Assembly: GCA_965200315.1 (NCBI GenBank) | Contig: OZ241362.1 | Coordinates: 2,240,001 to 2,304,000, forward strand | Length of the DNA stretch: 64,000 bases | DNA from: Candidatus Latescibacterota bacterium | GTDB taxonomy: Bacteria; Latescibacterota; UBA2968; UBA8231 | Direction of reading: 5' to 3' | Shown here: piece by piece, positions 1 through 30,768 of the stretch | Layout: each line of letters begins with the position of its first letter | Position numbering within the stretch: position 1 is the first letter of the stretch | The notes under the pieces: model-generated | Told to the model about the DNA's origin: nothing | The model's input: the letters and a program-made list of their open reading frames with translations, nothing else | Database searches by the model: none | Translations under genes and position numbers: made by a program

Positions 1-1
1 C

Positions 2-619: not shown

Positions 620-666
620 TTGATCTCGGCTGGATTCAGTAGGAAATAAGCTATTCAAAGTTGCAG

Positions 667-1395: not shown

Positions 1396-1410
1396 AGGTC
1401 AGACCTGAAG

Positions 1411-2874: not shown

Positions 2875-2882
2875 GGTAAATA

Positions 2883-3656: not shown

Positions 3657-3669
3657 CTTATGCGAACCT

Positions 3670-5450: not shown

Positions 5451-5529
5451 TTTGCACTCCGTTCGGTAATATTATACCAGATTGACGAGCTGTACTTTTC
5501 ATAGTCAGTCTTCACGTTTGCTAAGAGAC

Positions 5530-6639: not shown

Positions 6640-6746
6640 AGATATCTACTCTTCTAATTGTTATAAGTTAGCCAAAAACAGTTAATCGCGATTCCCGATC
6701 AGCAGACCTAATAGAAACTAGGGCATTTATATCAAGAGGTTAAGTG

Positions 6747-6784
6747 CCTGCCTGTAGTAATCAACATAGATAACTACAGGCAGG
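6747..6784. terminator. Hairpin between precursor genes and modification genes
   Basis: CCTGCCTGTAGT (6747-6758) is the exact reverse complement of ACTACAGGCAGG (6773-6784); only a weak U-tract follows. Confidence 0.6.
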
Positions 6785-6844
6785 ACAATACTAAATACCG
6801 TTTGAGATCAAAGTAGCCTCAGCCATAAAAACAATAAACGGCAC

Positions 6845-6958
6845 TTACAGGCAAATAGGGCTAGGGCAATGACAGTGGCAGCAGGTGCAGCAGGAGGCCC
6901 TGATAAACGCTGGCGACATATAGCCATCAAAGGACTTCGATACGACTTTGAGCTTCAT
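6845..6958 (-). CDS. RiPP precursor peptide A2 (37 aa): MKLKVVSKSFDGYMSPAFIRASCCTCCHCHCPSPICL
   Basis: Manual translation; AAGGAGG SD; leader identical to A1 at 16 of the first 17 residues. Below the ORF-track size cutoff. Confidence 0.9.
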   Translation of the reverse strand: MKLKVVSKSFDGYMSPAFIRASCCTCCHCHCPSPICL

Positions 6959-7001
6959 CTTGATTTCCTCCTTTGAGCGGGCTCAATTACAAAATAGACT
7001 A

Positions 7002-11514: not shown

Positions 11515-12301
11515 ATGTCTAATCCTAAAACAGTGGAACAACTACAGGAACATGCTGCTATCTATTGGCCATCTGAAATAGCGCATCAAGAGAAGAGTTC
11601 TAGTATTATTCCGCTGCTCCTTAAAACGCAAGATTGTTTTATAAGCGTACTTCATCTTGCATAGCTTAGGGCTTGACGGAAAAGGACTCCAGAGACGCTT
11701 TGACCTTACAGATGCCATTAGAGATGTGAGTACCCTGCTCTTATTTGGCGGTTTGTCAACCAATGACTTTTTGCCAGAAGAAATCACAGAAAAATGTATT
11801 ATTGGCTCAATGCTTGGCGACAAACCGAGGCTGGAAAAGTACATTAAAGAAAGATATATCTGGGTCAGTCGAATTACTGGAGGAGCAACATCCAACAGGA
11901 TGGGTCACCTCGCTCAAAGTTATGTAAAAGAGCGGTTGGCCAAATATCTCCCAGATTGGGACTTCTCACAAACCACAATCCCAGGTGTTAGCCAGAACGA
12001 GGGCAGAACAAATACAAAGTTTGACATCGTTGGCAAAGGTCCTAATGGTAACTATTGGGGCATTGAAGTGAGCTTCCAGTTTACGACCAACAGCGTAGTA
12101 GAACGAAAAGCTAAACTCGCCCTCGATAGACAAAGGATTCTTCAGGAAAAGGGACATAAAATTGCGTATGTAGTTGATGGTGCTGGTAACTTTGAGCGTC
12201 GATCTGCTGTGCAGGACTTGATCTACTACAGCGATTGTATTATCAATTTTAGCGATGGTGATATTATGCGTCTTGCATGCACTATGAAAGGAGACAACTA
12301 A
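11515..12301 (+). pseudogene. BanI/HgiCI-like type II restriction endonuclease, disrupted by internal deletion and frameshift
   Basis: 5' fragment 11515-11664 (MSNPKTVEQLQEHAAIYWP...IIPLLLKTQDCFISVLHLA*) and 3' fragment in another frame (ERYIWVSRITGG, IEVSFQFTTNSVVERKA, YVVDGAGNF) resemble the N- and C-terminal parts of R.BanI as I recall it; the middle is missing. Confidence 0.7.
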
Positions 12302-12302
12302 A

Positions 12303-14057
12303 ATGGCTCACCGGAGTGAAAACTGCAAACCTTTAGATATATCCACAAAGACATTTGAAGGCTTTCAAGAATTAAAGTCAACGCCACTACGCCCGAATGT
12401 ATGGCTCTTTCACTTGATAACAGAAGTTGATTTTGACGATGAATGCTCGATGGAAATTCCCACGCAAAAATTGTCCGGTTTCCTCGAAGAACTACCTGAC
12501 GAAAGCACCGTTTGTTTTTTGGCAAATTCTCGTATCGCATGCCATGTAATAGAAGCATTTCAGAACCTCGTTCACTTCAAACTTTGGATAGCTGTCAAGC
12601 GAAAAAAAGAGATCCTGAGATCAGGTGCTATACCAGATGATCATATTGCCCTTTTGGTTTTTACCTGTTACAAAGGCTCCCTAAAGCACAATAGGACTCA
12701 AATTGCATACACCTATTGTCCGGCTTGCGAAAAAACGACCAAAGACTACGGTGGCAAGAAGCATATTTATAGCCCCTACGGCACCCTTATGTCCGATATT
12801 TGGCGCGACATCTCTTACGACAACGAAACAGAGCCTATCGCCATTCTAGAAAGACTAAGTGATCTCTTTGGTCTCGCACCACATCGCCAACTCATCTACT
12901 GCGACGTCAGGAAATTTTTTAAGCTCTCTAAAAAGACAGCACTTCGCCCGGAAAACGGAAGGCTCAACGATCCCGGCGAGAGCCGCCTTCTCAACGGAGA
13001 TTGTTTAGATATTCTCAGAACCATTCCCGAAAATTCCGTAGATTTTATCTTTGCCGATCCGCCGTATAATATAAAAAAGAAATACGATAACTGGAATGAC
13101 TCCCAAGACATCAGCGACTATTTTTTATGGTGCGATCAATGGATCGCCGAATCCGCTAGGATTTTGAAGCCTGGTCGGACTTTTGCAATCATAAATATTC
13201 CCCTTTGGGTCGTCAGGCATTTTTCGTTCGCGAAAAGTATTTTAGACTACCAAGATTGGATCGCTTGGGAGGGATTGAGCTTGCCCGTCAGGCAAATTAT
13301 GCCCGCCCATTACGGAATAATTTGCCTCAGTAAAGGTCGGCCCATTGAAATTGCTAATCACGAGCAAGACGCATGTTGGGAAACGCGCCAAGACTTTATG
13401 AGCCTCAAACAATGGTATTGCGTTAGGACCTCTTGCATTAAAAAGAGAAATGCGACTCAAATTACTGATCGACAGCCTCTTGGGAACTTATGGTGGGACA
13501 TACATAGGCTAAAGCACAATTCAAAAAGAGTGGATCACCCCTGCCAACTACCTCCATCACTGATGAAGCGACTCATCCACACCTTTACCAAAGAAGGGGA
13601 CCTTGTTTTAGACCCTTTTAACGGCGCGGGTACAACGACCTTAACCGCAGAGATACTTTGCAGAAAATTCATCGGCATTGAACTATCGGCCCAATATCAC
13701 GCCATGGCCGAGCAAAGACATCTGGACCTAAAACAAGGAGAGGACCCATTTGCTAAAAACAAGGCTACTCCAAGTGTCAAAAACAGCAGGGTCTCACGAC
13801 TGCAAAAAAGGAAATACGAAGTACCCAAGAAAACACTACAAATCGAAGTTAAAGAGCTTGCGATCAAACTGGGGCGCAGGCCCGACAGAGAAGATGTCAT
13901 CCAGTTTAGCAAATATCCAATTCGCTATTTCGACGAATACTTCATCGACTGGGGTGAGGTGTGTAGTGCGGTCGGCGACAAGGGAATGACTGAAGATTCT
14001 TCTCGCTCGTTCCGCCCTGTGCCCGAGGATCGGCAAATGGAACTTTTTTTTAGCTAG
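12303..14057 (+). CDS. Beta-class N4-C/N6-A DNA methyltransferase with N- and C-terminal extensions
   Basis: FADPPY (motif IV) precedes LDPFNGAGTT (motif I); HPCQLP; N-terminal region with CPAC; C-terminal helical module. Confidence 0.88.
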   Translation: MAHRSENCKPLDISTKTFEGFQELKSTPLRPNVWLFHLITEVDFDDECSMEIPTQKLSGFLEELPDESTVCFLANSRIACHVIEAFQNLVHFKLWIAVKRKKEILRSGAIPDDHIALLVFTCYKGSLKHNRTQIAYTYCPACEKTTKDYGGKKHIYSPYGTLMSDIWRDISYDNETEPIAILERLSDLFGLAPHRQLIYCDVRKFFKLSKKTALRPENGRLNDPGESRLLNGDCLDILRTIPENSVDFIFADPPYNIKKKYDNWNDSQDISDYFLWCDQWIAESARILKPGRTFAIINIPLWVVRHFSFAKSILDYQDWIAWEGLSLPVRQIMPAHYGIICLSKGRPIEIANHEQDACWETRQDFMSLKQWYCVRTSCIKKRNATQITDRQPLGNLWWDIHRLKHNSKRVDHPCQLPPSLMKRLIHTFTKEGDLVLDPFNGAGTTTLTAEILCRKFIGIELSAQYHAMAEQRHLDLKQGEDPFAKNKATPSVKNSRVSRLQKRKYEVPKKTLQIEVKELAIKLGRRPDREDVIQFSKYPIRYFDEYFIDWGEVCSAVGDKGMTEDSSRSFRPVPEDRQMELFFS

Positions 14058-15063: not shown

Positions 15064-16887
15064 ATGACTGCTACTCCGATCATCATGGACTGGGACCTGA
15101 CGAGCTATTTCGCTGAATTTGATGGCCCGGCCATGCGGCAATTCAAAGACAAACTGCAACGGGATATTGCAGCGGCACGTCAGCAAGCCGCCGCCTTAGC
15201 ACCGCTTGCCGAGGCCAATGCCGCCGCTTGGGAGGGCGTGTTCCTCCGGACTGAGGGGCTGACTGACCGCCTCTCCCATTTGGGCTCCTACCTCGGCTGC
15301 CTCACCGCGGCGGACGCCGACAATGAGGACTACGCCCGCGAGGAAGCCGCCTTTGCCCTGCTAGCGGCCGAGAGCGAAAAGCTCGATGTCGAACTCCTGT
15401 GCGCACTCAAGGACACCTCGGACGAAATGTTTGCCAAGTTTGTTCAACGGCCCGCCTTGGCCGACTGCGGCCACTTCCTCGGCCGCCAGCGCGAAGACGC
15501 CCAGCGCACCATGAGCCCGGAGAAGGAGATCCTCTCTGCCGACCTCGGGGTCGACGGTCTCCACGCCTGGGACCGCCTCTACGACTCAATTTCCGGCAAG
15601 CTCGAATTCGACATGGCGTTTCCCGATGGCCGCACCGAGCACCGCCCCATGTCGCAGCGCCGCGCCCTGATGGAAGATCCCGACCGCCGAGTCCGCCAAG
15701 CCGCCTTCGATGGCGGCAATCGGGCCTGGGAAACCATGGAAGACGTCGCCGCCGCCGCGCTCAACGCCATCTCGGGGACGCGGCTGACCCTTAACCAGCA
15801 TCGCGGCGTGGATCACTTTCTCGATGTCGCTCGCTTTCAAGCGTCTGTTTCGCCCAAGACCCTCGACGCGATGTTCGCGGCTATCGCCGAGCAAATCGAA
15901 CTGCCGCGCCGCATCCTCGCCCTCAAGTCGCAACTCATGGGCATTGAGGGCGTCGCCTGGTACGATCTGGGTGCGCCGCTACCGCTGCCCGACCAAGGGC
16001 AACTCTCTTGGGAAGAGGGCACGGATCTCGTCGTCCGCTCCTTTGCGGCGGCCTACCCACGCCTAGGCGAGTTCCTCGGCCAAGTCTGCGAACGCCAATG
16101 GATCGAGCACGCGCCCCGCCCCGGCAAGCGGCCCGGCGCTTTTTGCACTGGCTCGCTGTTGACCCGCGAGTCCCGCGTCTATATGACTTACAACGACACC
16201 CTCGGCGATGTGCTCACGCTCGCCCACGAGGTCGGCCACGCCTTCCACAGCTACATCATGCGCGACGTGCGCACCTACGCCCACTTCTACCCGATGACGC
16301 TGGCCGAATCGGCCTCTACCTTCGGCGAAATGATCCTCACCGAGGGCATCCTCGCCGACCCTTCCTTCAGCCCGGCCCAAAAGGCCAGTGCCCTCGACCA
16401 AGAAATTGGCCACGGCGCGATCTTCCTGCTCGACATCCCGGTGCGCTACCAGTTCGAGAAAAAGCTCTACGAGGAGCGCACCGACGGCGAACTCACGGTC
16501 AGTCGCCTCAAAGAGCTGATGGTCGAAACCCAGCGCGACGTCTTCGGCGACGCACTCGCGCAGGGGGGCGAAGACCCCTACTTCTGGGCCTCGAAACTCC
16601 ACTTTTACATCACTGGCGTGACCTTCTACAACTTCCCTTACACCTTTGGCTTCCTGCTCAGTCGCGGCCTGTATTCAATGTTCAAACAAGAGGGCCGCGA
16701 CTTTCTTCCCCGCTACGAGGAATTCCTGCGCCTCACCGGCAGCGACACGGCCGAGGGCGTGGCGCGCCGTGCCCTCGGTCGCGACCTCGAAGACACTCAG
16801 TTCTGGACCGAGGCCATCCAGACCTTGGAGGCCCCGTTGGCCGAGTTAGAGAAATTGCTACCCGAGGTTCTACCTGATCATTCGTAA
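15064..16887 (+). CDS. pepF: M3B oligoendopeptidase F
   Basis: WDL N-terminus, GKRPGAFC, HEVGH zincin motif, AESASTFGE, FYNFPYTFG. Confidence 0.9.
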   Translation: MTATPIIMDWDLTSYFAEFDGPAMRQFKDKLQRDIAAARQQAAALAPLAEANAAAWEGVFLRTEGLTDRLSHLGSYLGCLTAADADNEDYAREEAAFALLAAESEKLDVELLCALKDTSDEMFAKFVQRPALADCGHFLGRQREDAQRTMSPEKEILSADLGVDGLHAWDRLYDSISGKLEFDMAFPDGRTEHRPMSQRRALMEDPDRRVRQAAFDGGNRAWETMEDVAAAALNAISGTRLTLNQHRGVDHFLDVARFQASVSPKTLDAMFAAIAEQIELPRRILALKSQLMGIEGVAWYDLGAPLPLPDQGQLSWEEGTDLVVRSFAAAYPRLGEFLGQVCERQWIEHAPRPGKRPGAFCTGSLLTRESRVYMTYNDTLGDVLTLAHEVGHAFHSYIMRDVRTYAHFYPMTLAESASTFGEMILTEGILADPSFSPAQKASALDQEIGHGAIFLLDIPVRYQFEKKLYEERTDGELTVSRLKELMVETQRDVFGDALAQGGEDPYFWASKLHFYITGVTFYNFPYTFGFLLSRGLYSMFKQEGRDFLPRYEEFLRLTGSDTAEGVARRALGRDLEDTQFWTEAIQTLEAPLAELEKLLPEVLPDHS

Positions 16888-16938
16888 GAAGTCGGCAGAC
16901 TCTTCGCGCTCCAGCCACCCGCAACCCCAAGGATTCCC

Positions 16939-17694
16939 ATGTTGCGCTTACTTCTAGTTTTCCTCTTTTGCATCGGTTCAGCCCACGCCGCCGACAATCC
17001 CCCGGCCCCCGGCTTCAACGCCGCTGGTTCCGATCCCAAGGCTATCGCCTTAGCAGACGAAGTCATGGCCGCGATGGGTGGCCGCGCCAACTGGGACGCT
17101 ACCCGCTACATCACTTGGCGTTTTTTTGGTTTTCGCTTACACGTGTGGGACAAGTGGACCGGGGACATTCGCTTCGAGCAGGGCGATCTGACGGTGCTGA
17201 TGAATATCCACAGCAAAGAGGGCCGCGCCTTCTCCGCTAGGGAGGAAATCAGCGATCCCGACACGCTCGCGGCCAAGCTCGACCACGGCTACCGCTCTTG
17301 GATCAACGACTCGTACTGGCTGGTCATGCCTTACAAGCTCAAGGACACCGGCGTCACCTTGCGCTATCGGGGCCTAGAATCCACCGAGGACGGCCGCCCT
17401 GCCGAAGTGCTGGAACTCACGTTCAAAGATGTCGGCGTCACCCCGCACAACAAGTACGCGGTCTGGATCGACCAAGAATCGCGGTTAGTGACCCAATGGG
17501 CGTTCTACCGCGAGGCCGCCGACGCCGAACCGGGCTTTATCGGCCCCTGGACCAACTGGCAGCGCCACGGATCCATTTTGCTCTCCGACGGTCGCGGCGA
17601 GCGTCAGCACACCGATGTGGCGGTCTTAGACAAATTGGCGCGCTCGGTTTTCACGAGTCCGGCCCCGCTGGATTGCTCTTGCCTTCTCGAGTAA
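16939..17694 (+). CDS. Conserved secreted hypothetical protein
   Basis: Signal peptide; AMGG..NW and WINDSYWLVMPYKL motif. Confidence 0.7.
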   Translation: MLRLLLVFLFCIGSAHAADNPPAPGFNAAGSDPKAIALADEVMAAMGGRANWDATRYITWRFFGFRLHVWDKWTGDIRFEQGDLTVLMNIHSKEGRAFSAREEISDPDTLAAKLDHGYRSWINDSYWLVMPYKLKDTGVTLRYRGLESTEDGRPAEVLELTFKDVGVTPHNKYAVWIDQESRLVTQWAFYREAADAEPGFIGPWTNWQRHGSILLSDGRGERQHTDVAVLDKLARSVFTSPAPLDCSCLLE

Positions 17695-17731
17695 ATAGGC
17701 CACTGCACTGCTAGGCCGATATAGTCAACGC

Positions 17732-17764
17732 AAAAAAGCCGACCCAGCTATTGGGTCGGCTTTT
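17732..17764. terminator. Bidirectional rho-independent terminator
   Basis: AAAAGCCGACCCA-gctat-TGGGTCGGCTTTT. Confidence 0.85.
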
Positions 17765-17788
17765 ACTTTTGCATGAGGCGCGTTCAGC

Positions 17789-17809
17789 TCAGGCTGCCCG
17801 CAGTTCATT
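17789..17809 (-). repeat. Orphan copy of phyH 3' end (left boundary of helicase cassette)
   Basis: Minus strand AAT GAA CTG CGG GCA GCC TGA = NELRAA*; 18/21 nt identical to 23534-23554, all differences synonymous. Confidence 0.7.
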
Positions 17810-20800
17810 TACCTAGGTAGGATACGTGGTGCTAGTTCCTTCTTTAAGTTGGCGCGTGAAGAGAGCTGGACGAGGTCAAGGGTATCATTCTTATGTCCAA
17901 TTTGTACGAGCCGTGCAATCGGCCCCTCTGCCTCTGGCGAGAGACACTCTAAGTGTCCGAATACGATGACAGCATCCCGCGCTCTCGACAGAGCGACATT
18001 GAGCCGATGCCTATCGAGTAAAAACTGAACGCGACCACGATTCCTCGTCATTAGGAGGATCACAATGTCCGCTTCACCGCCCTGAACTGCATCTACAGTG
18101 GTAACCTTTATGTTGAAGTGGAAATTCGAGTTCTTGATCTCCTGATCAACAGCATTCCGCTGAGCTTTGTACGGACAAACCACTAAAACGCTCAACTCCA
18201 TATCTTTCGCCTGCCGCTGAAGGTGCCGTAGCACCGCGTGAAGTGCCTCCCTCTCTGTCCGGTTTTCTATCGACATTGAGGATTGACTCTTATATTGTCG
18301 GTAGGCCGAGACTTTCGTGAAATCGACAAATACCAATCGCTTGCTTGTTAACGTCCAGTCACCGTCTTTTCTGTGGGACTTGAGGTGCCCATCGTAAAAC
18401 AACTTGCTGACGATGTCACCGATATCCTTGTGCATACGGTACTGTGTTGTCAGCATACCTTTGTTGGAGTCGGGTAGCTGATCGAATATCTCGTGAAACA
18501 TGTTGCGCCGAAGGAGTTCCTCAACCTCCTTCAAAGATAACCTGTATCCAATACCCTCATCTAATACATCGGCTGTCACTGTTGGGGGCAACTGGTTGTG
18601 ATCGCCGACGAGAATGACCTTTCGGGCAACAGAGGCCGGAATAACTAGCTCTGCACCAAAGGCCTTTCCCGCTTCGTCAATAATCGCGATGTCGAACGTG
18701 CGATTCCATAACCCATAGTCGCGTCTAGCCATTCCGACACACGTCGCAGCATGGATCCGCCGCGGTCCCAAAAGCCACTTCGCCGCCGATTCTCGGCCCT
18801 CACGCGTGTCCAGCAACTCATTCCACCGTTTCCAAGATTCGTTCCCAAGCTCTTCTTCGTCTGGCTCCTTTTTTAAGCCCTCTAACAAGCGCGAATGCCA
18901 CACCGGCTCAAGCACGGTTCCCTCAACCCGCTCCACACTGCCGTAACGCACAACTTCCTCAGAGAGCCTGCCGGCCTTCATCAGGAGGTCGTTGACGAGC
19001 TTGTCGACCGCTACATGAGTTGGAGCTGCAATAAGAACGCTAGGCCACGTCTGTTCCTGCCCTTGCTTAAAAAGCGAAAGGAGCCAGTTCACGAGAAGCG
19101 TAGTCTTCCCAGTACCAGGTGGCCCCCAGACTGCCACAACAGCTTCATCAGAGTTCAACAACCTCTCGACAGGTGCCTTGCCGAGGTGACGGTTTTTAAC
19201 GGTATCACCTGATAGACCGAGGAGAGTCGAATGAACCCTTGCAGAAGCAAACTTTCCAAGAATGGCATGCTCAAGTGCCCTAGATAGGGTTTGCTGCTGC
19301 AAACCCTCGGCTTGTTCAATCCGGGAAAGTCCGAACGGCTTGATATCCCCAAAGTTTGCCTCAGCCGGGACGTCGAGTTCAAGACGGCAAATGCCAAGCT
19401 GTCGGTCTTTCCATTTGGCACGTTTCACCTTCCAACTGCGATCATGCCCAACTACCTGAAGTCTGGTGAACCCGTCAGCGGAAGTGGCTTCGTCAACCCA
19501 GACAGGAGGTTCGCTGTCTAAAATCGTGCCAACAACGACACGTCCACTACGTTCGCTCTTGCCAGGAAGAAAACCACAAGAACCCGTTATTTGATGGTAC
19601 TCTTGTTGATCTTGATAGATCAGTGACAGCTTCCTCAGGTGGCGGGCTGTTCTGCGTTGCAGCAGCATCTGCTTCTGACTACTGAGTTCCGCATGTATGG
19701 CTTCGACGAACAAATTGAAGAGCGAGCGATCTGCTTCTTTGTCATCTGGGGTCCCTGGAATAAAAGCGGTGATGCCAGCATGAACGCGAATGGAGATCGG
19801 CGAATCGATTTCATCGAAGAGTATATCTTCAAGGACAAATGCCTTGTGTTCTGCATCAACCGTCGTTACAAGTGTGACCTGACCCATCGTGAAGGCAATT
19901 CTGCCTGAGTCCATAAGATGTATTCGCCAAGGGGCATCAGTCTCATTGGAGATGCGTTCGTATGCCTGCACTAGGAGTGCCAACATCGCTTCGTTGACCG
20001 CCAGTAGGATAGGTGACCAGTACTTGCGGCTGCCTTCAATGCGAGGATGAAGACGAACACGAAGAGGCTGATCGCTACGTCGGTCAGCGATCTCTCGTAG
20101 CGTCCATATTTCGGGATAGACATCTGCGTTGCTCTCAGGCGTCAACCAACTATAATCTTGTGAACTCTTACACGGCAGAAGAAGTGGAGCCCCAAGATAT
20201 TCAAGTAGGATACCTTCTCTATCTCGATGAATGACCTTTGCGGGTAGTGCCCCACCACCGTCAAGCAGGTTGGCCTCAAGCAAAGCAGCACCTGTAGTCG
20301 TTACGCTTGCAACTCGCTTCTCGTGGTCAACATTGAAAAGCATTGCGCGTCCATTGAGGTCGCTGGACCAATCTTTCTCTTTGAGGCGGTAGCCATGAAG
20401 TTGCTTGGGGATCTTGCCATCAAAATGGACTAGCCCGGCCTCCCTTGGGAAGTCATTGGGTAACTCAAGGTCTCCTATACTCGGGATATTACTCTGGGCA
20501 CCACTTGCTACAGCAGAGAGGCTTCTCTTTAGCTGCCTCAAATAAGCCCGTTCCGCATTGATTTGGATCAGGGCAAGCTCGAGTTCCAAGACGATCTGAC
20601 GAAAGGAATCCCGCTCACGGCTACCGAAGGGCCTATCCAAGATTTTACGAGCTTTGGCTTGGCCAGCAACTAAGTCAGTAGCAACAGCATCTCTCATGTT
20701 GAGTTCCTGCTCAATGAAGGAATCCAAGTGATTCACGTAGTCGCTGATTAGAGGACGCCTAGCCCTTGCCTCAGCAGCATGAATTTGAGCAAGCTGTGCC

Positions 20801-20907
20801 TCTAGCGCATCAATTTCTTCCTGAACTTCGGCGGTACGACGACCGTTCCACCAGCTAACTGCACTGGCAGTGAGACTGATCCCGGCGATGGCGAGTAGAG
20901 GGACCAT
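17809..20907 (-). CDS. SF1B (UPF1/DNA2/NAM7-like) helicase with N-terminal hydrophobic anchor and coiled coil
   Basis: WGPPGTGKTT, APTHVAVD, IIDEAG, LVGDHNQLPP, QYRMH, CPYKAQ, TVDAVQGGE, RLNVALSRAR; N-terminus MVPLLAIAGISLTASAVSWW. Confidence 0.88.
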   Translation of the reverse strand: MVPLLAIAGISLTASAVSWWNGRRTAEVQEEIDALEAQLAQIHAAEARARRPLISDYVNHLDSFIEQELNMRDAVATDLVAGQAKARKILDRPFGSRERDSFRQIVLELELALIQINAERAYLRQLKRSLSAVASGAQSNIPSIGDLELPNDFPREAGLVHFDGKIPKQLHGYRLKEKDWSSDLNGRAMLFNVDHEKRVASVTTTGAALLEANLLDGGGALPAKVIHRDREGILLEYLGAPLLLPCKSSQDYSWLTPESNADVYPEIWTLREIADRRSDQPLRVRLHPRIEGSRKYWSPILLAVNEAMLALLVQAYERISNETDAPWRIHLMDSGRIAFTMGQVTLVTTVDAEHKAFVLEDILFDEIDSPISIRVHAGITAFIPGTPDDKEADRSLFNLFVEAIHAELSSQKQMLLQRRTARHLRKLSLIYQDQQEYHQITGSCGFLPGKSERSGRVVVGTILDSEPPVWVDEATSADGFTRLQVVGHDRSWKVKRAKWKDRQLGICRLELDVPAEANFGDIKPFGLSRIEQAEGLQQQTLSRALEHAILGKFASARVHSTLLGLSGDTVKNRHLGKAPVERLLNSDEAVVAVWGPPGTGKTTLLVNWLLSLFKQGQEQTWPSVLIAAPTHVAVDKLVNDLLMKAGRLSEEVVRYGSVERVEGTVLEPVWHSRLLEGLKKEPDEEELGNESWKRWNELLDTREGRESAAKWLLGPRRIHAATCVGMARRDYGLWNRTFDIAIIDEAGKAFGAELVIPASVARKVILVGDHNQLPPTVTADVLDEGIGYRLSLKEVEELLRRNMFHEIFDQLPDSNKGMLTTQYRMHKDIGDIVSKLFYDGHLKSHRKDGDWTLTSKRLVFVDFTKVSAYRQYKSQSSMSIENRTEREALHAVLRHLQRQAKDMELSVLVVCPYKAQRNAVDQEIKNSNFHFNIKVTTVDAVQGGEADIVILLMTRNRGRVQFLLDRHRLNVALSRARDAVIVFGHLECLSPEAEGPIARLVQIGHKNDTLDLVQLSSRANLKKELAPRILPR

Positions 20908-20919
20908 TTCGTTGCGCTA

Positions 20920-21342
20920 CTATTTCTTTAGTTGCACGATTTTGTCGGAGAGCTGCAACAGGTATTGATGTACCTCCTTCTTGTCATCGTCAGGAAGGTC
21001 TGGAGCCTTGGCTTTCTCCATAACATCGTCAAACAGCGACAACAGTCGCATCAGTGCTTCACGGGATTGTGCGAGCTCTTCCATTTTGGGCTTATTCTGT
21101 TCTCGGGTATCCTGCAAGTTAGCTTCCGCCTTTTGGACGTCAATCTCAGCTGCTCTGATACGTCCCTCCCACTCCACACAGGTTTTCTGAAGCTCTTTGT
21201 GGGACTTGAACACATCGCAAACAGATTGGATCGCGACAATTGCTTCCTTACATACCTGTAGCTTTGCAACCTCAACTTTCGTAGCAGCCATACCAGCGTT
21301 CTTGGCAATTTCAGCGGGGAGGTTCAATTTTTTGTCGAACAT
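20920..21342 (-). CDS. Hypothetical all-helical/coiled-coil protein (140 aa)
   Basis: Tightly packed in the operon, GAGGAG SD, heptad-like composition. Confidence 0.75.
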   Translation of the reverse strand: MFDKKLNLPAEIAKNAGMAATKVEVAKLQVCKEAIVAIQSVCDVFKSHKELQKTCVEWEGRIRAAEIDVQKAEANLQDTREQNKPKMEELAQSREALMRLLSLFDDVMEKAKAPDLPDDDKKEVHQYLLQLSDKIVQLKK

Positions 21343-21345
21343 CGT

Positions 21346-21861
21346 TCACTCCTCTGTTTGGACCGAAGTCTCGTTATAGTTTTTGAGTCCGTGGCGAAAA
21401 TCTGTCCACGCGCCTTCCAGCGACTGCAGTTGCCTGTCAAAGGCTTCCAAGTCCGGCAGTTCAGATGAACGAATAGCCTCAAGTTCATCCAAAGTCGTCC
21501 TGTATACACAGCTACAAGCCAAGACCAACTCACCAAGCCTTTTTTGTATATCCTTTCTCTGTTTTATTGCCTCCTTGGCTAAGTCCAATTGTTCGCCGAG
21601 TTGTTGACGCTCAAGTCGTAGCCGTTTCTCTTCGTACGGAATAAATTTTTGTAATCCATCTCGATGCTCTCTAGCGGCTCTGAGATTCAGATAGGAACTC
21701 ACAGCATCCGCGACTGAAACCGCCGCCTCGATAGCCAACAAAGCAGGATTGGCTTTCGCTGCTGCTCTCGTCAGACCCGTCTTAAGACCATGCTTGGCAG
21801 CGAGTCTTGCGCTACTTGCCATGAAAGTGAGAGCGTGTCTGGGGACATGAGTTGCCATCAA
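21346..21861 (-). CDS. Hypothetical protein with Ala-rich hydrophobic helix and coiled coil (171 aa)
   Basis: ATGA overlap with the upstream gene; NPALLAIEAAVSVADAV segment followed by a charged helical region. Confidence 0.75.
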   Translation of the reverse strand: MMATHVPRHALTFMASSARLAAKHGLKTGLTRAAAKANPALLAIEAAVSVADAVSSYLNLRAAREHRDGLQKFIPYEEKRLRLERQQLGEQLDLAKEAIKQRKDIQKRLGELVLACSCVYRTTLDELEAIRSSELPDLEAFDRQLQSLEGAWTDFRHGLKNYNETSVQTEE

Positions 21862-23429
21862 TCATTCACTCCTATAAGACACCAAGAGTCCGGAATTAAG
21901 TGCTTAGCAACCCTATCTGAAGCCACAGAGACACCATTCTTACCTATGGAGGGTAACGGAGGGAACGACGATCCCTTGAGCTTCCGCATAAAAACGCCTT
22001 CACTATCCTGCAACCGCCACAGCGTAGCTGTGTACGGTTCAAAAAACAGTGTCTCAAGAGACTCACCGTTCTTCCGTGCAACTGCATGGCATTGAACCAT
22101 AAGAAAGTTACGACATTTCGAGTTCCCATTCGCAGGGCGATATGGCTTCTCTCCAACCGGGGCGAAGACGCTCCACAGTCCGGCCAAGAGCCAGGGCTCT
22201 GGCGTGTCAATATAAACAGGCTTCCAAGGAAGTGATCCGTCGCGGCGCAGGAACACTCGCAATCGATCATCCTCTTGGAGACGTGCCAGTATCGATCGCT
22301 TATCTTCGGGGACGATACGTTCTATGAGCGTTTCAGGCAAAGCCTCATCGGTCGCTCGTAAAAACATATCCTCCGCTGGTCTGTTACGAGGCGGGCGGGG
22401 CCAATTACGAGGATGTTCGTCCTGTTCGCGCTGATCTTCGGCTAGAATAAATTGAGAGGATGGGTGTGCAGCACTCGCAAACAGGCCACGAATAGGGTCT
22501 GCATTAAGTTCTCTTGCGTGAACTACAGCCTCGGCAAGGTGCTTACCCTTCTTACTCGGACGCCACCCTTTAGCCAAGCCTTCCTCAACAAGGACTTTAT
22601 GTATCTGATCAAGTGTTAAGTATGGCAAGCCGGTAGTGGACTGAATGTCGTCCCGCGATCTTTCTGCGACGAGGTCCTCAAGGACATAAAGTACAACCGG
22701 GTCACAGCTTCGCGGTGTTTTTGCGATCGCCCATATTTTGAAGGGTAGGCTACTAAACGCGATAGAAATTTGTGGGGACTCGGGTTGTGGCAGGCACGCC
22801 CGAAGACTTCCAATAGCTCTCGCTCGCCGTTCTTTTTTATCGGTCAACCAGCCTTCAGGAAGTTCCACACGGGTGATTTTGACCTCAACTTCGTCCCCAA
22901 GAGCAACAACTTCGGAAGGATGGTCAATCCATTCCCAGCCGAGTTCCGCGATAGGTAACCAGACTCGGAAAGCACCCGAGTCTAAGATTACGCCCCGGTC
23001 CTTAAAATCGACGATCCTGCCTTTGAGTCGATCACCTTCATTCAGGCTTGAGAGTGCTGTGCGAGCTTTGGCCTCGGTAACGGCGCTGATACTTGCCTTC
23101 CATCCTTTGGGATCATGCTTGATGAGGACAAAATCGACTTCTTGCCCATCTTGAAGCACTTCGGATGGAGAATCGATAAAGCGATCTGCCATCTCATCCA
23201 AGAAGACGACGGCCGTGAGATTACTTGAGGCAACCTTGGCGAATTTATCGCCGACGTACTCGACGCGACCGCTTACGAGGTCGCCAGGGTTTGGCCCACT
23301 CCGAGCTGTTGATCTATATGGCCTATTGGATCGTGGCCTGTCGGGTCGTGAACGCTCTTGCTTAGCTTGCTTAGTAGGTTGCTCCCCTTCTCCAAAGAGC
23401 AAAGACAATAGGTTATTCCAGAGGCTCAC
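21858..23429 (-). CDS. Tandem S1 RNA-binding domain protein with putative winged helix and unknown C-terminus
   Basis: Two S1 repeats (GDLVSGRVEYV...PSEVLQDGQEV; GDRLKGRIVDF...HPSEVVALGDEVEVKI), then a helix-turn-helix-like segment (DIQSTTGLPYLTLDQIHKVLVEEGL). Confidence 0.8.
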   Translation of the reverse strand: MSLWNNLLSLLFGEGEQPTKQAKQERSRPDRPRSNRPYRSTARSGPNPGDLVSGRVEYVGDKFAKVASSNLTAVVFLDEMADRFIDSPSEVLQDGQEVDFVLIKHDPKGWKASISAVTEAKARTALSSLNEGDRLKGRIVDFKDRGVILDSGAFRVWLPIAELGWEWIDHPSEVVALGDEVEVKITRVELPEGWLTDKKERRARAIGSLRACLPQPESPQISIAFSSLPFKIWAIAKTPRSCDPVVLYVLEDLVAERSRDDIQSTTGLPYLTLDQIHKVLVEEGLAKGWRPSKKGKHLAEAVVHARELNADPIRGLFASAAHPSSQFILAEDQREQDEHPRNWPRPPRNRPAEDMFLRATDEALPETLIERIVPEDKRSILARLQEDDRLRVFLRRDGSLPWKPVYIDTPEPWLLAGLWSVFAPVGEKPYRPANGNSKCRNFLMVQCHAVARKNGESLETLFFEPYTATLWRLQDSEGVFMRKLKGSSFPPLPSIGKNGVSVASDRVAKHLIPDSWCLIGVND

Positions 23430-23533
23430 TGATCCCCCTGTTGTTATGGGGTACTTTCATCGGTAGGGTAGTGTTCTAAGAGAGTTTCGGGAGAAAGCTA
23501 TACAGTAGGGCCAGATTCTGATATGAACTAACT

Positions 23534-24346
23534 TCACGCCGCCCGCAGCTCATTCTCGGGCGCATTCTCCAGCCGCGACAGCCAGTAGGACACATCGTAG
23601 CTGTCGTCGCCGGTCAAGAAGCGCCACAGCTTGATGCGGTTGACGACCTCTAAGCGCACCTCGTTGCCGTACCAGCGATGGTTGGCGTTGAGCAGCGCGG
23701 AGACCTCCGCATCGTCGATATCGTCGGTGTTCCACAGCTTTTTCTGCCGCACCGTGGGGTTGAGCCGCAGCTTGAACATGTAGCGCTTGCGGCCGGTTAG
23801 GTTGGGCTGGGCGCAGTGCCAGATGCCGTGGTGCGCCACGGCCACCGTGCCGGCCTTGCAGACCATCGGCATCTGCCCGAGGAAGTTTTGATAGCGGGCG
23901 ATGTCCGACTCGCTGATGCGTCGGTAGTGACTGCCGGGCAGGAACATGGTACCGCCCATCTCCCTCGGCGTGTCATGAGCAAAGTAAAAAAACTGGACGT
24001 CAAAGTGCAGCCGGGTGTCGATAATCGCGTCGGCGTGCCAGATCTGCCCGTGCTGGTGGTGAGCATCAACCGTATGCACGGCGTGGTGGTCGTAGAGCGG
24101 GTCGGGGCCGACTAAGCTGTGAACGATCCCCTGAATCTGGGGCAGGCGCACCACTTGACCGATTACCGCATCGGCCCACAATTCGGCGAGCGGCGCGCCA
24201 GCGCGGCCCCGTGGGACCCCGGCTTCCATTTCCGCACATGCGGCGCGATTGATCTCGTCGGGCACCAGCTCGTCAAAGCGCAAAAAGCCATCGGCGACAA
24301 ACTGCGCCATCTGCTTGGTATTCAGGAGATATTGCTTATCGACCAT
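23534..24346 (-). CDS. Phytanoyl-CoA dioxygenase (PhyH) family Fe(II)/2OG oxygenase
   Basis: QFVADGFL, WHAD (HxD), GGTMFLPGSH, IWHCAQPN. Confidence 0.85.
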   Translation of the reverse strand: MVDKQYLLNTKQMAQFVADGFLRFDELVPDEINRAACAEMEAGVPRGRAGAPLAELWADAVIGQVVRLPQIQGIVHSLVGPDPLYDHHAVHTVDAHHQHGQIWHADAIIDTRLHFDVQFFYFAHDTPREMGGTMFLPGSHYRRISESDIARYQNFLGQMPMVCKAGTVAVAHHGIWHCAQPNLTGRKRYMFKLRLNPTVRQKKLWNTDDIDDAEVSALLNANHRWYGNEVRLEVVNRIKLWRFLTGDDSYDVSYWLSRLENAPENELRAA

Positions 24347-24620
24347 CGATTGCCTCCAGCTTTTCGAGGATGTACTCGTATTTCAGGTAGGACGTGTTGT
24401 ATTCCATGCCTGGATAGGCCGGGTACTGCTGGGGGAACTGCACCACCCGCCACCCGTCTCGCATGGCCGCCACCACCGAAGGATAGGGCGGTTCCTCGCT
24501 ATCGCCGCTGCTAGATCGGTCCTCGCCCGTGCCGTCGTACAGCGACCAAGCCACGGTTTGGCTGTGCAAATCGGGAGAATGGGCGTAGAGCACCAATAAT
24601 TTCTGCCTAAGCTGGGCCAT
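24336..24620 (-). CDS. Small conserved hypothetical protein coupled to phyH
   Basis: Overlaps the phyH start; PPY.SV.AAMRDGWRVVQ motif; host-like codon usage. Confidence 0.7.
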   Translation of the reverse strand: MAQLRQKLLVLYAHSPDLHSQTVAWSLYDGTGEDRSSSGDSEEPPYPSVVAAMRDGWRVVQFPQQYPAYPGMEYNTSYLKYEYILEKLEAIDGR

Positions 24621-24690
24621 CGCGTCCTCTCGTTAAGGGTATTCAATAATAGGACGCGACACAGCCCACAGCAATGAGCCTGTCGCCCGC

Positions 24691-25536
24691 TCAGTTGCTC
24701 GAAAACTCGACCAACTGCCCGCCGCACTCGTCTTTCATTTTTTCCAGCGCCCTGTTCCGCAACTGCCGTACGCGCTCGCGGGTGACGCCCATAGACTCGC
24801 CGATCTCCTCCAAGGTCTTGGGCGCGCTGTCGTCGAGGCCAAAATAAGCGCGGACGATGTGGGATTCGCGGGCGTCGAGCACCTTCATACAATCGACCAC
24901 CGCCGCGCGCATTTCGCCCTCGACGAAGCGCTCGTGCGAGCTGGGCTCGGCCGAGACAAAGGTCTGTGCATACGTCATCTCGCTGTCGGCAAAAGCAGGA
25001 GCGTCCAAGGGCATATCCGGCTGCCCCAGCTCAAAGGCGTTGCGAATGCGTTCCGCCGAGAAATCGACGCAGGCGGCGATTTCCTCAATAGTGGGAGCGC
25101 GCCCCAGCTCTTGAGCGAGGACATCGGCCTCCTTTTCGACCTTCTGCCGGTCGCTGACCCGGCTCAGCGGCGGGCGGGCAATTTTGCCGTGCTCGGCTAA
25201 GGCGCGGAGGATGGCTTGGCGAATCCACCACACCGCATAGGTGATGAACTTAAAACCGCGCGTCTCATCGAAGCGCCGGACCGCCTCCAGCAGCCCGAGA
25301 TTGCCCTCGGAAATCAGCTCGATCAACGAGAGACCAGACTCGTGGTACTCGCGGGCGACGCGGACCACGAAGCGCAAATTGGCCCGCACCAACGCCTGAC
25401 GCGCCTCTTCGTCGCCTGCTTTGGCGCGTTTGAAGAGGGCAATTTCTTCCTCGCGACTGAGCGGCTCGGCGTCTTTTATGTCGCGCCAGTAGAGATCGGT
25501 CGCCGAGTACATTGTTTCTCTGTTTTGTGCCTTCAT
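24691..25536 (-). CDS. RNA polymerase sigma factor, RpoD/SigA family (group 2-like, no region 1.1)
   Basis: LSREEE, ANLRFVV, EGNLGL, GFKFITYAVWWIRQ, TLEEIG..MGVTRERVRQ. Confidence 0.9.
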   Translation of the reverse strand: MKAQNRETMYSATDLYWRDIKDAEPLSREEEIALFKRAKAGDEEARQALVRANLRFVVRVAREYHESGLSLIELISEGNLGLLEAVRRFDETRGFKFITYAVWWIRQAILRALAEHGKIARPPLSRVSDRQKVEKEADVLAQELGRAPTIEEIAACVDFSAERIRNAFELGQPDMPLDAPAFADSEMTYAQTFVSAEPSSHERFVEGEMRAAVVDCMKVLDARESHIVRAYFGLDDSAPKTLEEIGESMGVTRERVRQLRNRALEKMKDECGGQLVEFSSN

Positions 25537-28202: not shown

Positions 28203-28526
28203 GTGGACAACTTATGGAACAATTTTGTGAAAGGGTTGCAAGAAGGCGCGGCCACCGCCGCTGACAAAGCCGGCGACCTGACTCGTCTAGCGCGTGCCCG
28301 GCTCGATATCGCCGCTGCCAAAAACCAACTTCACCGCACCCAAGCGGATCTGGGAGCGCGGGTCCACCAGCTTCTCGAAGCCGGTGCCGACCCCGTGCCC
28401 GACGATCAAGTACAAGCGCTGAACCAACAGATCAAAGAGCAGAGTGCTGCGCTCGCCGATTGCGAGGCGGCCTATGAAGCACTGCAGAGCGCAGTGCGTG
28501 CGGAAGAGCGCAACGCCGATCAGTAG
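28203..28526 (+). CDS. Hypothetical coiled-coil protein
   Basis: Host-like codon usage; helical; co-oriented with the BMC gene. Confidence 0.65.
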   Translation: MDNLWNNFVKGLQEGAATAADKAGDLTRLARARLDIAAAKNQLHRTQADLGARVHQLLEAGADPVPDDQVQALNQQIKEQSAALADCEAAYEALQSAVRAEERNADQ

Positions 28527-29641
28527 CCTAACGACAGCAGCGTCTGTGGGGATTCGGGCGGTGCGGTGGCCTTGCTTTCGCGCTGGTAGGCTTGTGGTTT
28601 TTCGCTGTACTGAGCCACCAGCGTCATGCCGTCGGCTTCGCCGACAATTTCCGTAACTTCGTTTAGCAACAAGTCTTGTTCCTGAGCCGTCATTACCGGA
28701 AATCCATAACGGCGGTTCGCGTATTTCAACGGGCCGTTCTCTGCCGTGCGCACAGCGGCCCACTCTTCGTGCCGAGCCAGCCGAGCGCGGTTGTACTCAT
28801 TGGCGGCAGGAGGCGTGGAGCGCAGCAGGTTTTGCGCGACCGGCACCAACGTCTCGTCAATCTCCAAGCCGACCGAGTTTCTCCCTGCTGTTAGGGCGGC
28901 TGCCAGTGTCGTTCCAGTCCCGGCAAACGGATCGAGCACCACGTCTTCTTTGACGGAAAACATGCAGACGAGCCGGTAGGCTAGCTCGAAAGGAAAGGCC
29001 GCGCTGCGCTCGCGAGTAGGCGCATCGCCAAGCCCTTGCGAAGTTCCCTTTACGTCGAACCACACGTCTGAGAACCAGACGTTGCGCTCCTCCCAGAAGA
29101 AGGCACTCTCTCGGCGCTTGGCTTTCTCTGCGGTCGTTGTGAATGTTCGCCGCCGCCCTTTTCTAAGCACGAGAATGTACTCGTGCTCGTAGGTTACATA
29201 CGCTCCTACGGGCAGCATCCCAGACCCCATAAATTTGTTGGGTGCGTTAGTCTGTTTGCGCCACAGTATATCGGGCAACGCCGCAAAACCTTGGCCGAGG
29301 AAGCTGCTGAGTATGCGGGAGTGATTGGAGTAGAGTTGGAAATCGCCATCCATAGTTCGGGTGGCATCGCCGATATTAACGCAAGCAATCGCCCCCGGCT
29401 TCATGACGCGGCTGCATTCCATCCACACGGCATCAAGCAGCTCGTGCATGAGCGCGAAAGCGGCTCGTCCATTGCCGCCCGACAGTTGCTCCCCAATGCG
29501 ACCATCTTGGCACACGAAAATCTCATCCCACATTTCCACCATCGGATAGGGCGGCGAGGTGACTATCAGATCAACCGACTCATCCTCGATCCCCGCCATG
29601 GACTGGGCCGGGCCGCATATCAGCTTGGCGGTGGTTTGCAT
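28520..29641 (-). CDS. Beta-class DNA methyltransferase (SPPY, likely N4-cytosine)
   Basis: VTSPPY motif IV, LDPFAGTGTT motif I. Confidence 0.88.
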   Translation of the reverse strand: MQTTAKLICGPAQSMAGIEDESVDLIVTSPPYPMVEMWDEIFVCQDGRIGEQLSGGNGRAAFALMHELLDAVWMECSRVMKPGAIACVNIGDATRTMDGDFQLYSNHSRILSSFLGQGFAALPDILWRKQTNAPNKFMGSGMLPVGAYVTYEHEYILVLRKGRRRTFTTTAEKAKRRESAFFWEERNVWFSDVWFDVKGTSQGLGDAPTRERSAAFPFELAYRLVCMFSVKEDVVLDPFAGTGTTLAAALTAGRNSVGLEIDETLVPVAQNLLRSTPPAANEYNRARLARHEEWAAVRTAENGPLKYANRRYGFPVMTAQEQDLLLNEVTEIVGEADGMTLVAQYSEKPQAYQRESKATAPPESPQTLLSLGY

Positions 29642-29680
29642 GGATGCTGCAATTTCTGTGAAAACTCGACTGCCGCGCCG

Positions 29681-30595
29681 TTACAAATCTTTGGCAAAGT
29701 AATTCTCGTCCAGTTTTTTCACATCATATATGATTTCGGAGACCACGCCAACGCCGTGATTTATCATCAGACGGGCAAGTTCCTCTCCGTCTATCAACCG
29801 GATAAACTTGTTGCCTGCCGAGATAAAACGCGCCGTTTCACGCGCCTTTGGGACAAAGGACGAAGACGTGATAAACACGCCCTTACTTGCCCCTCTCGCT
29901 TCAAGGCTGCCGGAGAAATTGCGGATTTCGGGTGCTCCAACTTGGCTTTCCCAGCGTTTCGCCTGGATGTACACCTTTTCGAGTCCCAAGGCATCCTGAT
30001 TGATGATCCCGTCTATGCCGCCATCGCCGCTGCCCCCAATGGCTTGACCTTGGCCATAGCCCATTTTCTCAAGCAAACTGACTACCAATCGTTCAAAATC
30101 GGCGGGCGATACACTTTTCACCCGCTCCAATAGATCGTCGGCAAGTCTGTCACTCAATTCCCGATAAAGTACCGCAATTTGCTCATCGGGCGTACTATCC
30201 TCAGAGTCAGTGCCGACGTCATCATTGGCAGCGGTGTCCGGTGCGTCAGCATCGCCTCCGCCCCGTCGCACTGCATCTAGGTCGTTCCATCGCAATGAAA
30301 GAAGATCATTCGCGCCCGTTGCGAGCAGTTCTTTTCCCTCCTGAGTGATTTGGACGTGCCCACGCGAAGGAGAACGCAAAAAGCCGCCTTTTTTTAGATA
30401 AGCCAACACCCACTCTATGCGATTATCGAGCTTCGTTCGTCCACCCGATATCTTTTCCCGTGCCTCGGCCTCAGTCAATGGGAAACGTTCTTTCGTTGAC
30501 TCCTTGATAGATTTGTTGGAAATGGCCTCTCCGTTTGCGTCATTCGCTATTTCAAGAACCGGCTTACGCAGGTATTTTTGACTTGGAATAGCCAT
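29681..30595 (-). CDS. mrr: Mrr-family type IV restriction endonuclease
   Basis: N-terminal wHTH (NRIEWVLAYLKKGG), FERLVVSLLEKMGYG, DGGIDG, IQAKRW, LIDGEEL. Confidence 0.9.
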   Translation of the reverse strand: MAIPSQKYLRKPVLEIANDANGEAISNKSIKESTKERFPLTEAEAREKISGGRTKLDNRIEWVLAYLKKGGFLRSPSRGHVQITQEGKELLATGANDLLSLRWNDLDAVRRGGGDADAPDTAANDDVGTDSEDSTPDEQIAVLYRELSDRLADDLLERVKSVSPADFERLVVSLLEKMGYGQGQAIGGSGDGGIDGIINQDALGLEKVYIQAKRWESQVGAPEIRNFSGSLEARGASKGVFITSSSFVPKARETARFISAGNKFIRLIDGEELARLMINHGVGVVSEIIYDVKKLDENYFAKDL

Positions 30596-30768
30596 AGTTT
30601 TGAATAATCTCCCTTTCAGCTTAGGCCGGTACATCGTGCTTTCTATGAAATCATAGAATCACTTCAGACCGCTGCGACCTAGTAGTTTGTCTCATACAAC
30701 TCGCCGCCGTTGATTGCGGCTGCTCAATGCCGTATCCTTTCGAGTAGCACCCCTCAAGGAGGACAACC

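Follow-up and report, generated by a model that had tools for sequence, protein, structure and literature searches.

A horizontally mobile four-gene cassette centred on a UPF1-like helicase in a Latescibacterota genome, a candidate for an unnamed defence system

Our study of a 64 000-nucleotide stretch from a Candidatus Latescibacterota bacterium (contig OZ241362.1, positions 2,240,001 to 2,304,000; hereafter the window, numbered from its first nucleotide) revealed a cassette of four co-oriented open reading frames (ORFs), g1 to g4, on the minus strand (17809–23429, 5.7 kb) between two housekeeping genes. Judging from the genes and their predicted structures, the cassette is a self-contained mobile operon that probably encodes an unnamed anti-phage or anti-mobile-element immune complex centred on its helicase, a reading to which we assign a probability of roughly 0.55. 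It is regarded as an unnamed candidate defence system because it lacks two of the features that define Mokosh, holds none of the genes that define CoCoNuT or Tiamat-like type VI-A loci, and follows the logic of a helicase plus nucleic-acid binders that is common to all three. An earlier note, made from the letters of this stretch alone, knew of no named system with this composition, and the searches agree with it: PADLOC returned a match to MkoA for the helicase core only, and none of the four proteins matched an NCBIfam model above a curated cut-off. In the literature covered, no system of this composition is described; the supplementary tables of candidate systems (Millman 2022, the PADLOC candidates, DefensePredictor and the CoCoNuT helicase survey) lie outside that coverage and may list it. 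The accessible part of the DefensePredictor text makes no mention of such a system by term.

The operon begins with g1 (21858–23429), which encodes a 523 aa S1/winged-helix protein from a GTG start codon preceded by the ribosome-binding site AGGGGGA. It is followed by g2 (21346–21858 from an ATG start, or to 21861 from a TTG; 170 or 171 aa) and g3 (20920–21342; 140 aa), both encoding helical proteins, and by g4 (17809–20907), encoding a 1032 aa UPF1-like helicase of superfamily 1B (SF1B). The tight packing described in the earlier note was seen, with gaps of 3 nt between g2 and g3 and 12 nt between g3 and g4, but the ATGA overlap that it reported was not. With the ATG start, g1 and g2 overlap by 1 nt in the sequence TGATG; only the upstream TTG would give a 4-nt overlap (TTGA). 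The ATG is favoured as the start of g2, because the homologues are mostly 166 aa long and the window protein's own record has 170 aa. The GC content of the cassette is ~0.49–0.53, compared to ~0.60 in the flanks, as the earlier note had also remarked.

That the cassette is a discrete insertion, as the earlier note had described it, was shown directly by a comparison of 29 loci in 28 congeneric genomes. The flanking genes, which encode a 251 aa protein of unknown function and a PhyH-like dioxygenase, lie 87–128 bp apart without a cassette at 20 of these loci, and the cassette sits between them at two, namely in the window genome (G000) and in G011. The gap between the pair measures 740 and 1385 bp at two further loci, and at five there is no PhyH gene within the locus; in G145 and G146, where the site is without PhyH, the local gene arrangement is different and no PhyH homologue is found within 20 kb. 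A repeat search, together with the junctions against the empty sites, showed that the cassette is bracketed by a 21-nt direct repeat, the copies being 86 % identical at a spacing of 5745 nt. The right copy (23534–23554) is located within the 3′ end of the PhyH-like gene, and the left copy (17789–17809) is a duplicate of that end. In another genome, G023, the home site is empty (117-bp gap); its cassette is located at a distance of 3.7 Mb, with a DnaK/TonB-receptor pair on one side and UvrB on the other. DNA similarity between the window and the G023 copy (83 %) is confined to 17815–23304, that is, to the four ORFs and nothing more, and the unit common to both sites has no integrase or transfer gene of its own. 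The four genes travel as one horizontally mobile unit, which has been inserted at different chromosomal sites.

The ratio of nonsynonymous to synonymous substitution rates (dN/dS) was 0.24–0.39 in the cassette (0.24–0.37 for the G000/G011 pair and up to 0.39 against G023), compared to 0.11–0.14 in the flanks. By gene, it was 0.37–0.39 for g2 and 0.26–0.37 for g3. The synonymous rates between G000 and G011 were similar for cassette (0.07–0.33) and flanks (0.26–0.34). All four genes are under purifying selection, relaxed by a factor of 2–3 relative to that on the genes either side.

The search for conservation of gene order that the earlier note had proposed found the order g1-g2-g3-g4 kept at all seven loci examined: the window, G011, G023, G036 (from another family of the same class as the window genome), two Pseudomonas genomes, namely Pseudomonas sp. 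KNUC1026 (locus L009) and G691 (locus L113), and one metagenome contig (L079). By BLASTP, identity to the window proteins over these loci was 44–85 % for the helicase, 35–85 % for g1, 42–86 % for g2 and 25–81 % for g3, with the helicase at 44–48 % in the two Pseudomonas genomes and the metagenome contig. No fifth conserved gene lies beside the cassette among the loci, the upstream ORFs of 208–214 aa at three of them being unrelated. Such cassettes are rare, occurring in four of 168 genomes of the window's phylum (three of 31 in the genus) and, in samples of 401 genomes each, in one from the order of KNUC1026 and in two from its genus, Pseudomonas.

Protein searches recovered 66 clusters of helicases with the N-terminal 580 aa, 54 clusters of g1 among 148 matches, the remainder being ordinary ribosomal S1 proteins, and 91 clusters of g2 homologues, in none of which a Pfam domain was found. 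Sixteen longest-contig sizes were common to the helicase and g1 cluster lists and 21 to the helicase and g2 lists, an indirect sign of co-location. The source names of the clusters include Halomonas, Marinobacter, Pseudomonas, Caballeronia, Variovorax, Duganella, Cupriavidus and Sandaracinus. A scan of genome contigs with an alignment of the full-length helicase, which picked generic helicase motifs, contained at least one family member (L009) among the 67 loci listed, and a metagenome scan with the N-terminal alignment gave at least one locus. Separately, one genome apparently carries a shortened helicase (676 aa, P0007) and a shortened g1 (400 aa, P0088), which may be a decaying copy of the cassette.

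The cassette stretch also occurs in runs labelled as sponge metagenome. Contigs from two metatranscriptome libraries of one study cover the cassette, for example 17771–20898 and 17673–20865, which correspond nearly exactly to g4, and contig depth was uneven between contigs in the RNA libraries, whereas it was flat in the DNA runs. These contigs are a weak hint of expression, as DNA carry-over is possible and contigs cannot show transcription, strand or level. In two DNA runs, two contig variants each were seen for the g1 stretch 22843–22971, with six differing positions and unequal depth, which suggests co-existing strains or alleles.

The link to known defence genes anticipated by the earlier note was found in three of six independent contexts, where Gabija, Tiamat or PD-T7-5 adjoins the cassette, a raw count from a small sample without a background rate. 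On the metagenome contig, a complete Gabija pair lies directly upstream (GajA 8e-215, GajB 1.6e-227). In KNUC1026, the Tiamat gene TmtA (E 0) is directly downstream, and the surrounding island also carries a P4-type integrase, DUF932 and a Gp3-like recombination directionality factor. As none of the other six loci contains TmtA, it is a neighbour rather than a component. The second Pseudomonas copy lies in an integrase-bounded island with matches to PD-T7-5 (2.9e-110) and to models of a NACHT-associated trypsin-like protease. In the window, a BanI-like endonuclease with an N6/N4 methylase (11657–14057) and a methylase with Mrr (28520–30634) are found 4–6 kb either side of the cassette, with housekeeping genes between.

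The core of the g4 helicase, two RecA-like domains (aa 580–1032, 17812–19170), was delimited by Pfam (AAA_12 1.6e-39, AAA_11 3.4e-30), PADLOC, motifs and Foldseek. The full set of SF1B motifs that the earlier note had reported is present (GPPGTGKT, DEAG, GDHNQLPP, QYRMH, TVDAVQGGE and NVALSRAR), and Walker A/B and SF1 motifs III, IV, V and VI are invariant or ≥90 % conserved in 21 homologues. Structural comparison of the AlphaFold2 (AF2) model, which has a mean predicted local distance difference test score (pLDDT) of 83, ranked Upf1 (8rd3_A, 1.6e-30), SETX, IGHMBP2, Dna2 and ZNFX1 first. Eukaryotic Upf1, SETX and IGHMBP2 match the core best in structure (Foldseek E 1e-30 to 1e-27) and have the full SF1B motif set in common with it. 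However, identity to them is ~20 %, there is no CH zinc-knuckle, and g4 has a bacterial-specific N-terminal helix, coiled-coil hairpin and beta-rich domain.

The N-terminal 580 aa of g4 form a region specific to this family. It opens with a hydrophobic helix (aa 1–20, 20848–20907), followed by WWNG and basic residues, then a coiled-coil hairpin (aa 26–134, 20506–20832; AF2 helices 26–90 and 96–134), both of which had been noticed earlier. The helix has a 17-residue Kyte-Doolittle mean of 1.6–2.4 in 21 of 21 homologues, with G9, W19 and N21 invariant, and a pLDDT below 50 (residues 4–20) when the protein is modelled alone. It may be either a membrane anchor, which is a prediction only, or a buried contact with g2. 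A beta-rich domain follows (aa 150–385, 19753–20460; AF2 158–385), for which there was no Pfam match and the ESM Atlas (g4 residues 140–395) gave no usable lead; its conserved polar residues are only Y173, H195, R285 and R289. A long helix (397–441) and a beta domain (443–532), together aa 397–532 (19312–19719) in the AF2 model, would correspond to the stalk and 1B-like barrel typical of UPF1-like helicases, and the Foldseek alignments to the Upf1 and SETX helicase domains extend over ~640–720 columns, longer than the g4 core alone.

In the AF2 model of g1 (pLDDT 87), a short N-terminal helix and a disordered basic linker precede two S1 domains, which are followed by a winged helix of three helices and by a C-terminal alpha/beta domain. 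The two S1-like repeats of the earlier note were recovered by Pfam S1 (PF00575) in two stretches (E 4.9e-15, 56.1 bits against a cut-off of 22). Pfam, AF2 strands and Foldseek place S1 domain 1 at aa 50–113 (23091–23282), and S1 domain 2 lies at aa 134–189 (22863–23030), with the best Pfam stretch at residues 129–189. The best Foldseek match of the pair was to domains D3–D4 of ribosomal protein S1 (7a05, E 1.1e-13), and rpsA models matched around positions 170–250. Nevertheless, g1 has two S1 domains rather than the four to six of ribosomal S1, its score against rpsA is 56 bits compared to NCBIfam cut-offs of 368–918, and its S1 pair is fused to other parts, namely the winged helix and the unique C-terminal domain. 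Elsewhere, the window genome keeps a separate 624-aa S1-like ORF.

The winged helix-turn-helix (wHTH) of g1 (aa 244–292, 22554–22700) is modelled as three helices and a hairpin, and its region gave weak profile matches to TtgV, LrpA and TFE in a PDB profile search. Among 28 aligned representatives of the g1 family, S1 was matched in 27, wHTH-PRTase_assc in five, HTH_IclR in three and MarR_2 in two. The C-terminal alpha/beta domain (aa 293–523, 21861–22553) is known only from the g1 family. When 1.84 billion representatives were searched with a profile of the C-terminal 320 positions, only 44 proteins were retrieved, and the domain occupied the same position in each full-length match. The C-terminal half had no PDB sequence relative, the profile search giving weak winged-helix matches only; the matches of the g1 model in PDB and BFVD by Foldseek were of S1 type only, none of them to the C-terminal domain, and the ESM Atlas gave no usable lead for residues 200–523 (best score 0.85, unnamed clusters). 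Near-invariant residues in this half are D243, E464, T469 and W471, among which no nuclease motif was recognizable.

The g2 and g3 proteins are helical, soluble and belong to no described family. In PADLOC, neither g1 nor g2 gave anything at E≤0.1, and g3 gave chance-level coiled-coil matches only, as it did in Pfam. The earlier note had proposed g2 and g3 as membrane-active effectors, which our data do not support: their maximum 19-residue Kyte-Doolittle means are 1.5 and 1.0, neither has a transmembrane-grade segment, and the most hydrophobic stretch of g2 holds acidic residues. The multimer modelling that the note had suggested was carried out with g2, g3 and helicase residues 1–395 folded together, the helicase fragment being the scored partner. 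All three runs scored 0.74, compared to 0.01 for the best of three controls. This mark is reached by 58 of 80 solved complexes and by two of 110 mismatched pairs, a calibration that is only rough for custom alignments and three chains. The runs agreed in ≥83 % of contacts, with a partner pLDDT of ≥73. In the confident interface, g2 residues 39–131 pair in parallel with helicase residues 4–148, and helicase residues 4–25 are buried against g2 residues 39–60. The model favours a role of g2 as a coiled-coil subunit of the helicase, paired with its N-terminal helix and arm, but does not prove it. It also offers an alternative to the anchor reading of the hydrophobic helix, so that the membrane-anchored helicase of the earlier note is favoured by hydropathy but opposed by the predicted burial of the helix.

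Three further observations concern the small proteins. A likeness by eye between g2 residues ~39–62 and the helicase N-terminus was not supported as homology (hhalign probability 0.2 %), and homology between g3 and the helicase arm likewise found no support. A weak likeness was seen between g2 and g3 (probability 20 %, E 0.0011). The window g3 is without 26 residues that are present in the G011 orthologue (L076 12439–12939), to which it is otherwise 96 % identical in the alignment.

Mokosh (type I, MkoA and MkoB; type II, MkoC) resembles the cassette in being centred on a UPF1-like (COG1112) SF1 helicase, and the g4 core is closest to MkoA. According to the accessible part of the preprint, Mokosh is found in defence islands and is presumed to act on RNA or RNA/DNA intermediates, and its phage defence is abolished by mutations of the helicase ATP site and of the phospholipase D (PLD) active site (Millman 2022). 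The cassette lacks the PLD nuclease (MkoB, or fused in MkoC) and the Ser/Thr kinase of type I MkoA, and for this reason it is not Mokosh; as the earlier note had seen, no PLD or kinase domain was found by Pfam in g1–g4 at E≤0.1. Furthermore, the N-terminal region of the helicase (580 aa) is a different one and, like g1–g3, has no counterpart in the Mokosh models.

As far as the accessible descriptions extend, CoCoNuT types II and III (CnuH with CnuE and CnuB/C, predicted to target RNA) have a UPF1-like helicase and extensive coiled coils in common with the cassette, together with RNA binders of the oligonucleotide/oligosaccharide-binding (OB) fold (cold-shock domain or SmpB-like in CoCoNuT, S1 in the cassette) and a winged-helix partner. 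Some CoCoNuT types also have a separate coiled-coil-only protein, as the cassette does. Pfam found no McrB-like GTPase (CnuB), McrC homologue (CnuC) or nuclease-bearing CnuE in g1–g4. The coiled coil is N-terminal in g4, whereas in the CoCoNuT helicase it is an insertion after Walker A. The winged helix lies in the upstream g1, fused to S1 and without a recognizable nuclease, whereas CnuE is a downstream wHTH-effector nuclease. Downstream of g4 there is no further cassette gene and a terminator follows. Tiamat-like type VI-A, as described in the accessible text, places an S1-fused GHL ATPase beside an Upf1-like helicase-PIN, and so shares S1 and a UPF1-like helicase in a predicted defence locus; however, neither in g1 nor in g4 did Pfam find a HATPase/GHL, DUF3684 or PIN domain. 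The common logic of Mokosh, CoCoNuT, Tiamat-like loci and the cassette is a UPF1-like helicase with OB-fold or winged-helix nucleic-acid binders and coiled coils.

If the cassette is an immune complex, g1 would bind single-stranded nucleic acid of the invader, more probably RNA, with single-stranded DNA and R-loop or replication intermediates as other possible targets, and would hand the strand to, or license, the 5′–3′ motor of the helicase. The motor may sit in a coiled-coil scaffold that it forms with g2 and, probably, g3. Its translocation, driven by ATP, would then disrupt phage gene expression or replication, either directly, via the C-terminal domain of g1 or by recruiting host RNases.

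Several results weigh against this defence reading. Domain searches recognized no nuclease, toxin, pore or other effector domain in the four proteins, which makes the effector step its weakest part. Because 13 of 14 control genomes likewise contain matches to the MkoA model, the match of g4 indicates helicase kinship and not defence. No relative of the helicase N-terminal 580 aa was found by tblastn in 72 556 plasmid and 50 697 phage records, and there were no relatives among 581 candidate stretches of IMG/VR. In G023 and G036, no known defence gene was present among the flanking ORFs tested, the G023 flanks being DnaK, a TonB-dependent receptor and UvrB. Direct inspection covers the seven loci, and the collection scans are lower bounds and not a census. 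As for the complex, g3 lies outside the confident interface with the helicase fragment, and coiled coils are easily laid side by side by structure models.

A variant that is possible, if doubtful, is a nuclease-free, UPF1-type RNA-surveillance immune complex. A stand-alone copy of the mRNA-binding core of ribosomal S1 (D3–D4-like), fused to the winged helix and a unique sensor domain, would serve as a bait or guard directed at phage RNAs or at S1-exploiting phage factors, and would switch on a coiled-coil-scaffolded motor that strips or stalls invader RNA–protein complexes. Phages are known to exploit S1, as in the Qbeta replicase and T4 RegB. If true, helicase-driven RNA quality control would have a prokaryotic counterpart that operates with no dedicated nuclease. 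It is unlikely that the cassette is instead an accessory RNA-metabolism or quality-control module, degradosome-like or stress-related, that has spread horizontally and serves the host rather than immunity. S1 domains and UPF1-like helicases are classic parts of RNA processing, no effector domain was found, two contexts are without defence neighbours, and the metatranscriptome contigs, allowing for DNA carry-over, are a weak hint of constitutive expression. However, such patchiness (4/168 and 2/401 genomes) would be rare for a host RNA function, neighbours such as Gabija, Tiamat and PD-T7-5 in integrase-bounded islands would be unexpected, and dN/dS is 2–3 times that of the flanking genes.

Membrane-tethered abortive infection, with an anchored helicase and with g2 and g3 as membrane-active effectors released on RNA sensing, is distinctly unlikely. 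The hydrophobic helicase N-terminus is indeed present in 21 of 21 homologues, and the aromatic and basic residues after it resemble those at the cytoplasmic boundary of a membrane. Against this, the hydropathy of g2 and g3 (1.5 and 1.0) falls short of a transmembrane-grade segment, the complex model buries helicase residues 4–25 against g2, and the helix, with three invariant residues, is unusually conserved for a plain anchor. We consider a divergent Mokosh, in which the MkoA-type helicase was kept and the PLD partner was replaced by, or is hidden in, g1–g3, to be improbable. The best PADLOC match of g4 is MkoA (PDLC03920, 3.3e-92, then 7e-81), but the match covers g4 residues 580–991 only and model positions 624–1081 of 1112, leaving positions 1–623 unmatched. 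The absence of PLD and kinase domains and of any Mokosh counterpart to g1–g3 and the g4 N-terminal region also argues against it, and none of the six PLDc_2 (PF13091) matches in the genome comes within 1 Mb of the window. Equally improbable is that the genes are cargo serving a mobile element itself, for instance by maintaining it, by excluding competing elements or by controlling replication intermediates. Both Pseudomonas copies lie in islands with a P4-type integrase, one of them also with DUF932 and a Gp3-like directionality factor, and a direct repeat flanks the window copy. Nevertheless, the unit common to the sites consists of the four ORFs only, with no integrase or transfer gene, it was not found with the N-terminal query in plasmid, phage or IMG/VR records, and the islands also hold bona fide defence genes.

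A bidirectional hairpin terminator with a 14-pair stem (17734–17764, terminator scan) lies to the left of the cassette, 3′ of g4, and is the only strong terminator hairpin found at the cassette; it is native to the empty site, as congeners without the cassette carry it there too. The 5′ untranslated and presumed promoter region of the operon (23430–23533, minus strand) is not common to the G023 copy and contains no sigma-70-type promoter match. Promoter and terminator motifs inside the cassette were no commoner than in shuffled sequence, and no Rfam family was found in 16500–25000.

Additional observations were made on the surroundings of the cassettes. The earlier note had taken most of the other insertions in the window for restriction-modification, Mrr or toxin–antitoxin cassettes. 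The restriction-modification and Mrr neighbours are real, but the largest low-GC (~0.45) island (1–7000) carries a YcaO cyclodehydratase, ThiF-like and nitroreductase-family proteins, an ABC-2 transporter and a CAAX-type protease, and looks like a biosynthesis cluster for an azole-forming ribosomal peptide, not a defence locus. Two short neighbouring genes at 7677–11398 encode a GyrB-like (610 aa) and a GyrA/ParC-like (629 aa) protein; the latter matches the DNA_topoisoIV core only and is much shorter than a typical GyrA or ParC. The BanI-like ORF (214 aa) aligns to profile positions 126–331 of 338 only and may be N-terminally truncated or mis-started, and the N6/N4 methylase beside it carries an HNH-associated repeat. 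At 28520–30634, an N6/N4 DNA methylase beside an Mrr-type endonuclease (Mrr_N and Mrr_cat) lies in a second low-GC patch. On the metagenome contig (L079 39–2354), just upstream of Gabija, a 771-aa protein with a ResIII helicase N-terminus and a TnsA-like endonuclease C-terminus had no PADLOC match. Directly downstream of the G036 cassette (L078 5357–6612), two overlapping genes (161 and 257 aa, GC 0.45) without Pfam or PADLOC matches could be a toxin–antitoxin-like pair.

In summary, the cassette is directly testable, because it is compact and, by source names, present in culturable Pseudomonas, Halomonas, Marinobacter, Caballeronia, Variovorax, Duganella and Cupriavidus. If it protects against phages, the known defence systems would gain one with three of its four proteins outside any described family and with a UPF1-like helicase as the sole enzymatic domain, raising the question of how immunity operates without a recognizable nuclease or toxin. 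A further case would also be added to the recurrent combination of OB-fold RNA binders and UPF1-like helicases known from Mokosh, CoCoNuT and Tiamat-like loci, a combination that links bacterial defence to eukaryotic RNA surveillance.

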